Source of the DNA: an uncultured Lentimicrobiaceae bacterium
GTDB taxonomy: Bacteria; Bacteroidota; Bacteroidia; Bacteroidales; WCHB1-69
Direction of reading: 5' to 3'
Length of the DNA: 29,531 bases
NCBI GenBank assembly: GCA_964480685.1
Contig: CAYZQG010000001.1
Coordinates: 1-29,531 of the forward strand
The translations under genes were made by a program, and so were the position numbers. A model generated the notes under the pieces. That model was not told the DNA's origin and did not search any database. It saw only the letters and a program-made list of their open reading frames with translations. Shown here one piece after another: positions 26,797-29,120 of the stretch; position 1 is the stretch's first letter, and each line of letters starts with the position of its first letter.

Positions 26797-27234
26797 ATGA
26801 AAAAGACATGTTTCTTGATTTTTGCATTAGCAACCTTAACGTTAAGTGGATTTTCTCAAATCGATAAAATCTTAGGCAAATGGAAAACCATTGATGATGA
26901 AGATGGTACAGCCAAATCCATCGTATACATCTACAAAGCCACCAATGGAAAATATTACGGAAGAATTGAAAAACTATTTAAAGATGCCGACAAAACATGT
27001 ACGGAATGTCAAGGTTCTAATAAAAATAAACCTATTTTAAACATGGTTATTATAAACGGTATGGAATTAAAAGACAATGAACTCACCGGAGGAACCATTT
27101 TAGATCCAAATAATGGAAAAGTCTATTATTGTACCATTAGTTATGATCCTCAAACAAAAAAATTAAAAGTCCGCGGATCGTTAGACAAAGGTGGCTGGAT
27201 AGGTCGTAATCAAACCTGGATACGCGAACAATAA
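26797..27234 (+). CDS. DUF2147-family exported beta-barrel protein
   Basis: Signal peptide, GKWKTIDD, YYGRI, GGTILDPNNGKVY, LKVRG and GRNQTW.R. Confidence 0.9.
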   Translation: MKKTCFLIFALATLTLSGFSQIDKILGKWKTIDDEDGTAKSIVYIYKATNGKYYGRIEKLFKDADKTCTECQGSNKNKPILNMVIINGMELKDNELTGGTILDPNNGKVYYCTISYDPQTKKLKVRGSLDKGGWIGRNQTWIREQ

Positions 27235-27300
27235 TCCAATGTTAAAAGTGTACGATGTATGTACACTTTTTTTTATTGTAACAATCTAATAACAAATATC

Positions 27301-28227
27301 ATGAAAATCTCATCAACAGCAATTTTACTTTTTATTACACTATTTGCCGTTCCCGTGATTGCCTATTTTTTTGGTACTTCATTAGGCGTTTTAGAATGGC
27401 AAGCACTTCATACACTAATATTAATTGCCATTATTGCCATTGCTTACTCATTTATTGTAGGTGAATTAACCGGTAATAACAGTCAAGTAGATAAATTATG
27501 GAGTATATTACCCATTGTGTATGTTTGGGTAGTTGCCGGATACGGAAGTTTTACCCCACGCTTGGTTTTAATGGCTATTTTAGTTAGTTTGTGGGGCATA
27601 CGCCTTACAACCAATTTTGCCATGAAAGGTGCTTATCAATGGCGTTTCTGGACGGGTGAAGAAGACTATCGTTGGAAATACCTTAGAGCTAAACCCGAAT
27701 TTCAACCTCGTTGGAAATGGATGCTATTTAATTTCTTTTTTATTTGCATTTACCAACACACACTCATTCTTCTTTTTTCACTCCCTTCGTTAATAGCCCT
27801 TCAATTCAACCACACTCCCCTGCAATGGTTTGATTTTATTATTGCCGGAGCTATCCTCTTTTTTATTCTTTTTGAAATGATTGCCGATATTCAACAATGG
27901 AATTATCAAAGTAAAAAATGGGCGTTGATTAATTCCGGCAAGCTATTAATCGATGATTATAAAAAAGGCTTTTTAGATAAAGGCTTGTGGGCTTATAGCC
28001 GTCATCCTAATTATTTCGCCGAACAAACGATCTGGATATGTTTCTATTTCTTTGGCGTAGCTGCCGGCGGGCAATGGTTAAATTGGTCTATTGCCGGTTG
28101 CTTGTTGCTTATCGTACTCTTTCAGGGAAGTGCTACTTTCAGTGAAAGTATTAGTGCTGAAAAATATCCTCAATATAAAGACTATCAAAATAAAACATCA
28201 CAATTTATCCCTTTTCTTAAAGGTTAA
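27301..28227 (+). CDS. DUF1295 / steroid 5-alpha-reductase-like membrane protein (start probably 27301 rather than 27259)
   Basis: NNSQVDKLWS, WGIRLT, EDYRW, EMIADIQQW, GLWAYSRHPNYFAE and Y..YQ..TS.FIP. Confidence 0.88.
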   Translation: MKISSTAILLFITLFAVPVIAYFFGTSLGVLEWQALHTLILIAIIAIAYSFIVGELTGNNSQVDKLWSILPIVYVWVVAGYGSFTPRLVLMAILVSLWGIRLTTNFAMKGAYQWRFWTGEEDYRWKYLRAKPEFQPRWKWMLFNFFFICIYQHTLILLFSLPSLIALQFNHTPLQWFDFIIAGAILFFILFEMIADIQQWNYQSKKWALINSGKLLIDDYKKGFLDKGLWAYSRHPNYFAEQTIWICFYFFGVAAGGQWLNWSIAGCLLLIVLFQGSATFSESISAEKYPQYKDYQNKTSQFIPFLKG

Positions 28228-28275: not shown

Positions 28276-28290
28276 TGCAACATTGTTGCA
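28276..28290. promoter_or_regulatory. Perfect 7-1-7 palindrome TGCAACA-T-TGTTGCA; candidate operator of the adjacent Fur-family regulator
   Basis: Exact inverted repeat ending 18 nt before ATG 28309. It overlaps a one-mismatch -7-like sequence (TATTATTG). Confidence 0.7.
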
Positions 28291-28308
28291 TTTGAAACAC
28301 TGTTGAAT

Positions 28309-28719
28309 ATGAAATCTGATAAAATTTTAAGCGACCATCAATTGAAGCGAACTTCTTGTCGAGAAGGTATTATTGACGTGATGATGGAATCGAAAGAAGC
28401 TCTTTCGGAAAATGAAATTCGGGAACAATTGCAAGGGAATTATGATCGCACCACCTTTTACCGCTCGTTTAAAACATTAGAAGAGAAGAAAATAATTCAC
28501 AAAATAGTGGTTGATAATCAAATCATAAAATATGCCCTGGATAATCAACATACACAGTCCGACCAACATCCGCATTTTTATTGCAATCAATGCAAAACCG
28601 TGCAATGTTTAAATACCATCAACCTTCAAACTCCTTCGCTACCCGACGGATTTGTTGAAACCGAAATGCATGTCATGATAAAAGGAATTTGCAATCACTG
28701 CCAAAAAAACAACGGATAG
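28309..28719 (+). CDS. Fur-family metalloregulator (start probably ATG 28309)
   Basis: LKRTSCR, DRTTFYRSFKTLEEKKIIHK winged helix, HPHFYCNQC and C-terminal GICNHC (two CxxC). Confidence 0.92.
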   Translation: MKSDKILSDHQLKRTSCREGIIDVMMESKEALSENEIREQLQGNYDRTTFYRSFKTLEEKKIIHKIVVDNQIIKYALDNQHTQSDQHPHFYCNQCKTVQCLNTINLQTPSLPDGFVETEMHVMIKGICNHCQKNNG

Positions 28720-28723
28720 ATAA

Positions 28724-29068
28724 ATGAATACTAAGAAATATATTGCTTTTATTTGTGTCTGGATATACATATTTCCTCTTGTATATCAACCAATTCACAT
28801 TTACAAGCATCCTATTCATTTCGATAAGGAAGAAAAAAATATTATTATCGCTTCCGAAACAAGCAAGCAAATCTTTCAATTTCATGCTACGCATAAAAAA
28901 TGTCCGATTTGTGAATTTACGTTTTTTATCCGGACATTACCTCCCTTTTCGGTATTTGAAAGCAAATTAAATCAACTAAAAATCATCTTCCACGAAAACA
29001 TAACAAAACGTTTGTTTACTGTTTTCACCATTAACATATCACAACGAGCTCCGCCGGCAATATTCTAA
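28724..29068 (+). CDS. DUF2946/CruR-like leader protein: TM segment, His cluster, CxxC, C-terminal RAPP
   Basis: Hydrophobic residues 6-21, H25/H29/H32/H54/H57, C60-P-I-C63 and R108-A-P-P111 three codons before the stop. It lies directly upstream of a TonB-dependent receptor. Confidence 0.75.
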   Translation: MNTKKYIAFICVWIYIFPLVYQPIHIYKHPIHFDKEEKNIIIASETSKQIFQFHATHKKCPICEFTFFIRTLPPFSVFESKLNQLKIIFHENITKRLFTVFTINISQRAPPAIF

Positions 29069-29120
29069 ATTACGTATCTTAGAATAATTTTCACGTTTTT
29101 TTTTAACTTCTTATACATAC

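Follow-up and report, generated by a model that had tools for sequence, protein, structure and literature searches.

The 29,531-nt stretch of DNA analysed here (the window) is the entire 29.5-kb contig CAYZQG010000001.1 of an uncultured Lentimicrobiaceae bacterium, whose metagenome-assembled genome (MAG; assembly GCA_964480685.1) comprises 1.81 Mb and is 85% complete. The contig was present in sequencing runs from activated sludge and wastewater. Near its end, on the forward strand, lie a gene for a Fur-family metal-dependent repressor, a short open reading frame (ORF), and the beginning of a gene for a TonB-dependent receptor, which is cut by the contig end. The short ORF, referred to below as the leader, is the subject of this work. 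A first-pass annotation had singled it out as a candidate metal-sensing arrest peptide, in which ribosomes would stall at a C-terminal Arg-Ala-Pro-Pro (RAPP) motif to control the receptor gene. All of the coordinates given there for the 114-amino-acid (aa) ORF were correct on re-reading (Table 1). The same was true of C60PIC63, at positions 28901 to 28912, and of the five His residues ahead of C60 (residues 25, 29, 32, 54, and 57). The codons for R108APP111 were followed by three codons and the stop, as described, and the receptor start was located 52 nt past the leader stop; the CarbopepD_reg_2 N-terminus fits the assignment of the downstream gene to the TonB-dependent receptors.

Table 1. 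Features of the leader locus (window coordinates)
Feature	Position	Strand	Basis or remark
Palindrome TGCAACA-T-TGTTGCA, perfect 7-1-7, candidate operator	28276..28290	.	one exact site in the window, 0.1 expected by chance
Fur-family metal-dependent repressor gene	28303..28719	+	Pfam FUR E=2.8e-10
Leader ORF, 114 aa, divergent DUF2946/CruR-like candidate arrest peptide	28724..29068	+	ORF list, homologue statistics
N-terminal helix, residues 3-33	28730..28822	+	AlphaFold2 predicted local distance difference test (pLDDT) 83-93; hydropathy
Conserved 14-residue block C60-P-I-C-E-F-T-F-F-I-R-T-L-P73, including CxxC	28901..28942	+	Arg-anchored columns
Linker, residues 74-107, fixed length, drifting sequence	28943..29044	+	column entropy mostly >3 bits
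RAPP motif CGA GCT CCG CCG	29045..29056	+	predicted stall: P site 29051-29053, A site 29054-29056
Three-codon tail AIF and TAA stop	29057..29068	+	sequence
Weak A/U-rich hairpin, 8 bp, 10-nt loop, stop codon in 5' arm	29061..29086	+	minimum free energy and centroid folds
Intergenic spacer, 52 nt, 50% T, 5.8% G	29069..29120	+	no terminator, no conserved fold
N-terminal 137 aa of TonB-dependent receptor, cut by contig end	29121..29531	+	CarbopepD_reg_2 E=4.9e-19

The AlphaFold2 model of the leader contained a confident helix at residues 3 to 33 only and coil over the rest of the protein. Within this helix lies a hydrophobic signal-anchor, flanked on its N-terminal side by positive residues (KK) and with a hydropathy maximum at residues 7 to 25; the positive-inside rule suggests an N-in/C-out orientation. 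The leader thus shares with the DUF2946 family, which includes the arrest peptide CruR of Bordetella, the presence of an N-terminal signal peptide or N-in/C-out transmembrane (TM) segment. The helix also holds P18, Q22, and an H-x3-H pair formed by H25 and H29. In the family described below, P18 and H25 were invariant, and Q22 and H29 were at least 90% conserved. The composition of the loop was 16.6% His and 4.5% Cys, compared to 2.2% His and 1.0% Cys in the linker.

An exhaustive search of 1.84 billion representatives yielded 70 relatives of the leader and a profile search added more; 80 proteins were analysed. A word-index search for homologues returned the window protein itself as the sole match. 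The first-pass annotation had staked its proposal in part on the conservation of RAPP, the CxxC, and their spacing in homologues, and all three proved to be clearly conserved. Specifically, R[AGS]PP was present in 80 of 80 family proteins (72 RAPP, 7 RGPP, and 1 RSPP) and was always located 1 to 10 residues from the C-terminus, with a tail most often of 3 or 4 residues. The distance from the first Cys to the Arg was exactly 48 residues in all 78 family proteins that keep the CxxC, as well as in 23 of 23 named Bacteroidales loci, and it was 47 to 50 residues across 35 phylum-wide loci. The distance from H25 to the Cys was variable in the same 80-protein set (28 to 49, a 21-residue range). The linker kept its length in all 78 proteins although its column entropy was mostly above 3 bits; a K-S-P-like run ahead of the Arg was conserved in the family, and the window protein has I-S-Q in this position. 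Entropy was low in columns -47 to -35, counted from the Arg. The family consensus of the 14-residue block was CP[IV]C[ED]YxF[SA][IV]NxLP, and P73 lies 35 residues ahead of R108. Two family members, P0055 and P0068, had lost the second Cys (CPIR and CPVY), with RAPP and the 48-residue register both retained; these two may be sensors that use a single cysteine or sensors in decay.

Among the relatives, every synonymous form of the RAPP codons was used, which indicates that selection acts on the peptide and not on the RNA. The leader was also the sole ORF of at least 60 aa in the 1.81-Mb genome in which R[AG]PP lies no more than 12 residues from the stop, and the count of RAPP or RGPP in the 1370 ORFs of at least 150 aa of the same genome was zero. 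Published source data for Bacteroidota proteomes give observed/expected ratios of 0.137 and 0.173 for RAPP and RGPP, respectively, which is an approximately 7-fold depletion (PMC12992588). The motif pattern is more than chance. The family was patchy over the phylum, being found in 19 of 401 sampled genomes, among them 12 of the 15 genomes of one other genus. As the first-pass annotation had expected of automated pipelines, sources label the relatives "hypothetical protein" or leave them without a name.

These conservation data bear on a plainer explanation, namely that the leader is an ordinary small membrane metal-binding protein (a chaperone or accessory protein) in which RAPP serves a structural or sorting purpose and causes no regulatory stall. 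A conserved TM helix, a His-rich loop, and a CxxC would suit a metallochaperone, and CutF, a leader from Rhodobacter capsulatus, was first read in that way (PMC9426467, discussion). However, R-x-P-P is invariant and always at the very end of the protein, and RAPP and RGPP are otherwise avoided in proteomes (PMC12992588). The length of the linker is fixed while its sequence drifts, and the model of the protein is mostly coil. In addition, the spacer to the receptor gene is always at least 29 nt, so translational coupling of the leader to the receptor is impossible. We consider this explanation very unlikely, and the mature leader product may have a second function besides a regulatory one.

The family was linked to DUF2946 via bridging members. 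Matches to DUF2946 below threshold were observed in 13 of 69 family members (best 1.3e-4). One member, P0080, which matched the family profile with E=6e-20, scored 34.1 bits relative to the Pfam DUF2946 cut-off of 23.7 bits, and its alignment ran end to end, covering model positions 3 to 117 of 117. In addition, 68 of the 100 nearest named ESM-Atlas clusters were DUF2946. Judged by these similarities, the leader family appears to be a divergent Bacteroidota branch of DUF2946/CruR (PF11162). The first-pass annotation had presented the leader as a Bacteroidota analogue of CruR. The likeness held, and the notion of mere analogy did not, as the bridging members point to distant homology. A DUF2946 search of the leader's own genome gave no match, and weak LIC10965 and Pallilysin matches of the window protein were dropped as noise.

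CruR (Bp2923 of Bordetella pertussis, located before BfrG/CrtA) has an export signal that is dispensable, an essential CXXC, 45 intervening residues (plus or minus 1 to 2), and a RAPP three residues from the end (PMC9426467). In vitro, CruR was shown to arrest translation at RAPP, and the P and A sites of the halted ribosome hold the two Pro codons (PMC12992588). The window leader shares with the CruR family a CXXC and a RAPP a few residues ahead of the C-terminus, with 44 residues intervening and, as in CruR, a tail of three residues. Like CruR, it precedes a TonB-dependent transporter across a non-coupling spacer and has RNA with more C than G at its 3' end, and its predicted coil beyond helix 3-33 resembles the poorly structured CruR. 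The two systems also differ in several respects. The host of the window leader is a member of the Bacteroidales and not of the Proteobacteria, and the window protein is under the Pfam threshold. The spacing is invariant in the Bacteroidota family, whereas it varies by 1 to 2 residues in the CruR family, and the conserved H-x3-H and His-rich loop set the window leader family apart from CruR. The receptor is ZnuD-like with DUF4625 partners here and CrtA with PepSY_TM in the CruR case, and the spacer is 52 nt and A/U-rich here and 162 nt and G+C-rich in CruR. The usual DUF2946 setting of a first operon gene with PepSY_TM or copper genes and a long spacer was not found; DUF4625 follows instead.

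We compared the gene order in 30 close loci, which consisted of the window, 6 relatives, and 23 named Bacteroidales loci. The receptor gene was directly downstream of the leader in 30 of 30 close loci and in 29 of 35 phylum-wide loci, a Fur-family gene was directly upstream in 27 of the 30, and DUF4625 lipoprotein genes were 3' of the receptor gene in 21 of the 23 named loci. A role as surface lids of non-SusC transporters has been put forward for DUF4625 proteins (bioRxiv 10.1101/2023.03.17.533168). The order in the Bacteroidales operon, namely 7-1-7 operator, Fur-family gene, leader, gene for a ZnuD-like TonB receptor, and DUF4625 lipoprotein genes, is conserved. The named relatives were all Bacteroidales or "Bacteroidetes" MAGs, including Labilibaculum, Mariniphaga, Perlabentimonas, and Prolixibacteraceae and Paludibacteraceae MAGs.

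ApdA, ApdP, and SecM (PMC10951233, PMC7897499) are membrane-targeted leaders with a core RAPP (RAGP in SecM) near the C-terminus, as is the case here, and they monitor Sec/YidC and lie upstream of protein-localisation genes; unlike the window leader, they are without a CxxC or metal context. If the window leader monitored export in the manner of SecM, VemP, or ApdP, the release of its stall would report the Sec/YidC insertion capacity, and an N-terminal signal-anchor together with a C-terminal RAPP is the hallmark of such monitoring substrates (PMC7897499, PMC10987492). However, the genes downstream encode a TonB-dependent receptor and lipoproteins rather than Sec or YidC components, which lie downstream in the ApdA/ApdP class, and the CxxC, the H-x3-H, the loop with 16.6% His, and the Fur gene point to a metal. 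An export monitor is, in our judgment, extremely improbable at this locus.

The Fur-family protein was 138 aa long when translated from TTG 28303 or 136 aa when translated from ATG 28309, and it was 57 to 67% identical to the products of the genes in the same position in relatives. Its identification as Fur, Zur, or PerR was rejected, as it was too distant from every characterised one. The letters of its candidate operator in the window are TGCAACATTGTTGCA, and in 7 of 7 and 21 of 23 related loci the box TGCAnCAnTnTTGCA preceded the start of fur by approximately 35 nt. We know of no Fur, Zur, or PerR box that resembles TGCAnCAnTnTTGCA, and the box likely serves as the operator for a so far uncharacterised Fur-family regulator of the Bacteroidales. 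In relatives, it was seen to overlap a TAnnTTTG -7-like element. The fur stop codon and the leader start codon overlapped as TTGA in 13 of 27 loci, and the gap between the two genes was never more than 12 nt. This overlap implies that the translation of the leader is coupled to that of the repressor via termination and reinitiation. The leader start codon was TTG in 24 of the 27 loci; the window is an exception, with an ATG and a 4-nt gap (28717-28726).

Another contig of the assembly, C100:1-2374, opens inside a receptor gene whose product was 51% identical to the orthologue in locus L023 (residues 343-803), and two DUF4625 genes come next. It is probably the continuation of the window operon across an assembly gap, to judge from this similarity. 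The distant phylum-wide leaders were without a Fur gene and were found before a receptor gene, a DUF4625 gene, or a gene for an ATP-binding cassette (ABC) ATPase. At one of these loci in another genus (L046), same-family RAPP leaders were located before an ABC-transporter ATPase gene, which was followed by a gene for a siderophore-type receptor, and the spacers were approximately 280 nt. Two further loci of that genus (L045 and L047) had no receptor gene directly downstream of the leader.

As for the identity of the metal, the best NCBIfam similarities of the receptor were to hemin and ZnuD subfamilies, well under the cut-offs, and the copper receptor model scored far lower. A ZnuD-like receptor, a Fur-family partner, and a His-rich loop slightly favour zinc over copper at the level of sequence. 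The combination of two His and two Cys residues (His2Cys2) suits zinc and also copper. Two heme-related possibilities were also considered. A heme receptor was rejected: the TonB-hemin model was the top NCBIfam similarity of the receptor, below its cut-off, but the FRAP and NPNL boxes were absent; a reading of CP[IV]C as a Cys-Pro "heme regulatory motif" was without support.

The findings described above suggested that the leader is a regulatory peptide of the CruR/DUF2946 kind, in which a stall within RAP/P, its release by metal, and Rho would together gate the expression of the receptor. We assign this interpretation, which draws on homology with CruR and on geometry, a probability of about 0.72. 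In the proposed mechanism, the leader would be translated directly after the Fur-family repressor gene, and its N-terminal helix would direct the nascent chain to the membrane. After 110 residues had been made, the ribosome would halt while its P-site tRNA carries R108-A-P110 and Pro111-tRNA occupies the A site; this codon placement follows a toeprint of CruR and structures of ApdA/ApdP (PMC12992588, PMC10951233). The signal-anchor would have left the tunnel long before the stall. At the stall, the CxxC block (residues 60 to 73) would end 37 residues from the peptidyl-transferase centre, which is just past a tunnel of approximately 35 residues. Because the 48-residue ruler is invariant, this geometry would be fixed.

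When no metal is bound, the ribosome would stay on the last codons, and transcription and translation would proceed into the receptor and DUF4625 genes. Binding of metal to the CxxC, probably with H25/H29 and the His-rich loop, would cause the chain to fold or be pulled, a mechanism of release also put forward for CruR. The stall would then be released, translation would terminate three codons on, and receptor expression would drop due to Rho-dependent polarity on the C-rich, G-poor, and unstructured RNA of the 3' leader and spacer, as in Bordetella CruR. With the gate placed after the repressor gene, synthesis of the repressor would continue while the receptor is shut off.

A more specific version of this mechanism, which we regard as possible and rather doubtful, holds that the locus is a two-tier sensor of a metal other than copper, most likely zinc. 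It would combine a nascent His2Cys2 site, reinitiation from the repressor gene, and Rho gating, and there would be no RNA switch. The site would consist of H-x3-H and C-x2-C, like a reversed zinc finger, and would be held at a fixed 48 residues from the peptidyl-transferase centre. The repressor could then build up even as the receptor is turned off in seconds.

How the stall would be passed on to the receptor gene depends on the RNA at the end of the leader and in the spacer. Among the 28 listed related loci, spacer lengths fell within 41 to 67 nt in 23 (within 41 to 58 nt in 22), and the range among relatives overall was 29 to 301 nt. No intrinsic terminator was called between the leader and the receptor gene. 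The hairpin at 29061-29086, which is separated by 9 nt from a U9 run (29096-29104), was considered as a terminator and rejected because it is weak, stands apart from the U run, and was not conserved in 22 relatives; it is probably not functional. In most Fur-linked relatives, the spacer contained the motif TTTTCAGGTG(T/G)TTTAAnCTCAAT approximately 30 nt ahead of the receptor ATG. The AGGTG in this motif is Shine-Dalgarno-like and complementary to the GCA-CCU-CC spelling of Ala-Pro-Pro, and the window spacer has a degenerate version of the motif, TTTTCACGTTTTTTTTTAAC (29086-29110).

A stall could in principle act on translation rather than transcription, with the halted ribosome melting RNA that masks the initiation region of the receptor gene, as in SecM, MifM, and CutF. 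Initiation in Bacteroidota relies on unstructured start regions, which speaks for such a step. In leaders without a Fur gene, the footprint of the stalled ribosome cut the opening cost of the receptor start by 1.7 to 6.5 kcal/mol, and the effect beat nearly all shuffles in 9 of 11 of these distant loci. In several of them (e.g., L020, L028, L029, L035, L040, L042, L043, and L051), the last codons and the stop of the leader pair with the receptor start. CutF, too, operates in this way (PMC9973294). At the window, however, the effect was 1.08 kcal/mol and was equalled by 23% of shuffles, it was significant in only 1 of 24 Fur-linked loci, and RNAalifold found no conserved pair in 22 aligned leader/receptor junctions. 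Unmasking is unlikely to be the device used at the window locus, and two Bacteroidota subfamilies appear to couple the stall to the receptor differently.

Rho-dependent polarity remains as the coupling step of the CruR-like mechanism at the window. It is favoured here because Rho is encoded in the genome, the 3' end of the leader is unstructured and C-rich, and the other two routes are unsupported. The C/G ratio at the 3' end was 2.0 to 2.4, which is approximately the 97.5th percentile of sense-strand windows. By analogy with CruR, we propose Rho-dependent polarity as the coupling step with moderate confidence.

The sign of the regulation could also be the opposite of the one proposed. In this CutF-like alternative, metal on the exported side would prolong the stall, or release of the stall would feed reinitiation, and metal would induce the receptor. 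A short, length-constrained, and unstructured spacer (41 to 67 nt in most loci, as noted above) would permit reinitiation, and the 48 to 50 residues between the CxxC and the peptidyl-transferase centre would also fit a tunnel plus translocon. CutF senses periplasmic copper via delayed export (PMC9973294). However, a metal would be expected to turn off, and not to induce, an uptake receptor that follows a Fur-type repressor in its operon, and the closer relative, CruR, has the reverse logic (PMC9426467). Induction of the receptor by metal is, in our view, quite improbable.

Several points weigh against the CruR-like mechanism. The window protein had no Pfam or NCBIfam match (for DUF2946, none at E<=1). 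CruR is the first gene in its operon and has a promoter without a Fur site, unlike the window leader, which is second and behind a Fur-family gene. The stalling of Bacteroidota ribosomes on RAPP is a prediction from proteome depletion. Of the solved relatives of the receptor, the zinc transporter ZnuD is the nearest, and this link is weak (E=2.6e-18 over 156 residues). It is also uncertain whether a joint His2Cys2 site could form at the time of stalling because an anchor inserted N-in would put H25/H29 in the periplasm at a point when the CxxC has reached no further than the tunnel exit or the translocon. With respect to the Rho step, no rut or pause site could be called, the C/G skew across the family was modest (median 1.46 versus 1.04 in receptors), and the excess of C over G could come from amino acid composition. 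Finally, coverage from public RNA runs was limited to contig fragments of low depth, possibly derived from DNA, at fur and at the receptor end, and was uninformative about the leader.

The kind of regulator proposed here is already known from CruR (2022), CutF (2023), and a survey published in 2025, and the window leader is largely anticipated by them. CutF (PMC9973294) and the window leader share export, a Cys motif, a C-terminal proline-rich stall motif, and control of the next gene, which is a prediction in the latter case. CutF differs from the leader in having a CxxxC and a multicopper oxidase target, and copper switches the target on via delayed export and stem-loop melting; a CutF-type stem-loop is not found at the window locus. 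The survey of Fujiwara et al. 2025 (PMC12992588) reported a class of small proteins, secretory or membrane-bound, that carry RAPP or RGPP close to the C-terminus and are encoded upstream of TonB-dependent receptors, with 5450 RAPP cases, and the enrichment of DUF4625 genes downstream of RGPP leaders (61 versus 0). Its lists contain Bacteroidota examples, and the signature strings of the family were not found in the portion of the lists that was searched. The survey is a list, without a description of the Bacteroidales family, the Fur-linked operon, the exact ruler, or the coupling mode.

Three aspects of the locus are new. The Bacteroidales leader appears to lie downstream of an autoregulated Fur-family gene that has a putative operator of its own, and to be linked to this gene in translation; the 48-residue ruler is exactly invariant; and the Bacteroidota subfamilies differ in the pairing of the leader end with the receptor start. 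To our knowledge, the demonstrated cases of metal-sensing regulation by a nascent peptide (CruR and CutF) are limited to copper and to Proteobacteria. The window locus and at least 50 relatives would represent the same predicted device in Bacteroidota. Because of its exactness, the ruler would provide a clean system for examining how the binding of a ligand outside the tunnel releases a RAPP stall, and the placement of the leader behind an autoregulated Fur-family repressor would naturally bring together, on one transcript, metal sensing at the transcriptional and the co-translational level. Translation starts in Bacteroidota make little use of Shine-Dalgarno pairing, and for this reason the locus is also a test of the way in which a stall reaches the following gene in that setting. 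Should the two-tier zinc version of the mechanism be true, the leader would be the first zinc sensor of the nascent-chain type and, in a phylum whose ribosomes largely disregard Shine-Dalgarno sequences, the first arrest-peptide switch to be shown. The family also supplies an annotation rule for a widespread "hypothetical protein": a TM segment, a CxxC, 44 residues, R[AG]PP, and the protein end, located before a TonB receptor gene.

Directly 5' of the candidate operator and on the same strand (26797-28227), the window contains genes for a DUF2147 protein (145 aa, with a signal peptide) and a DUF1295 membrane protein (322 aa).

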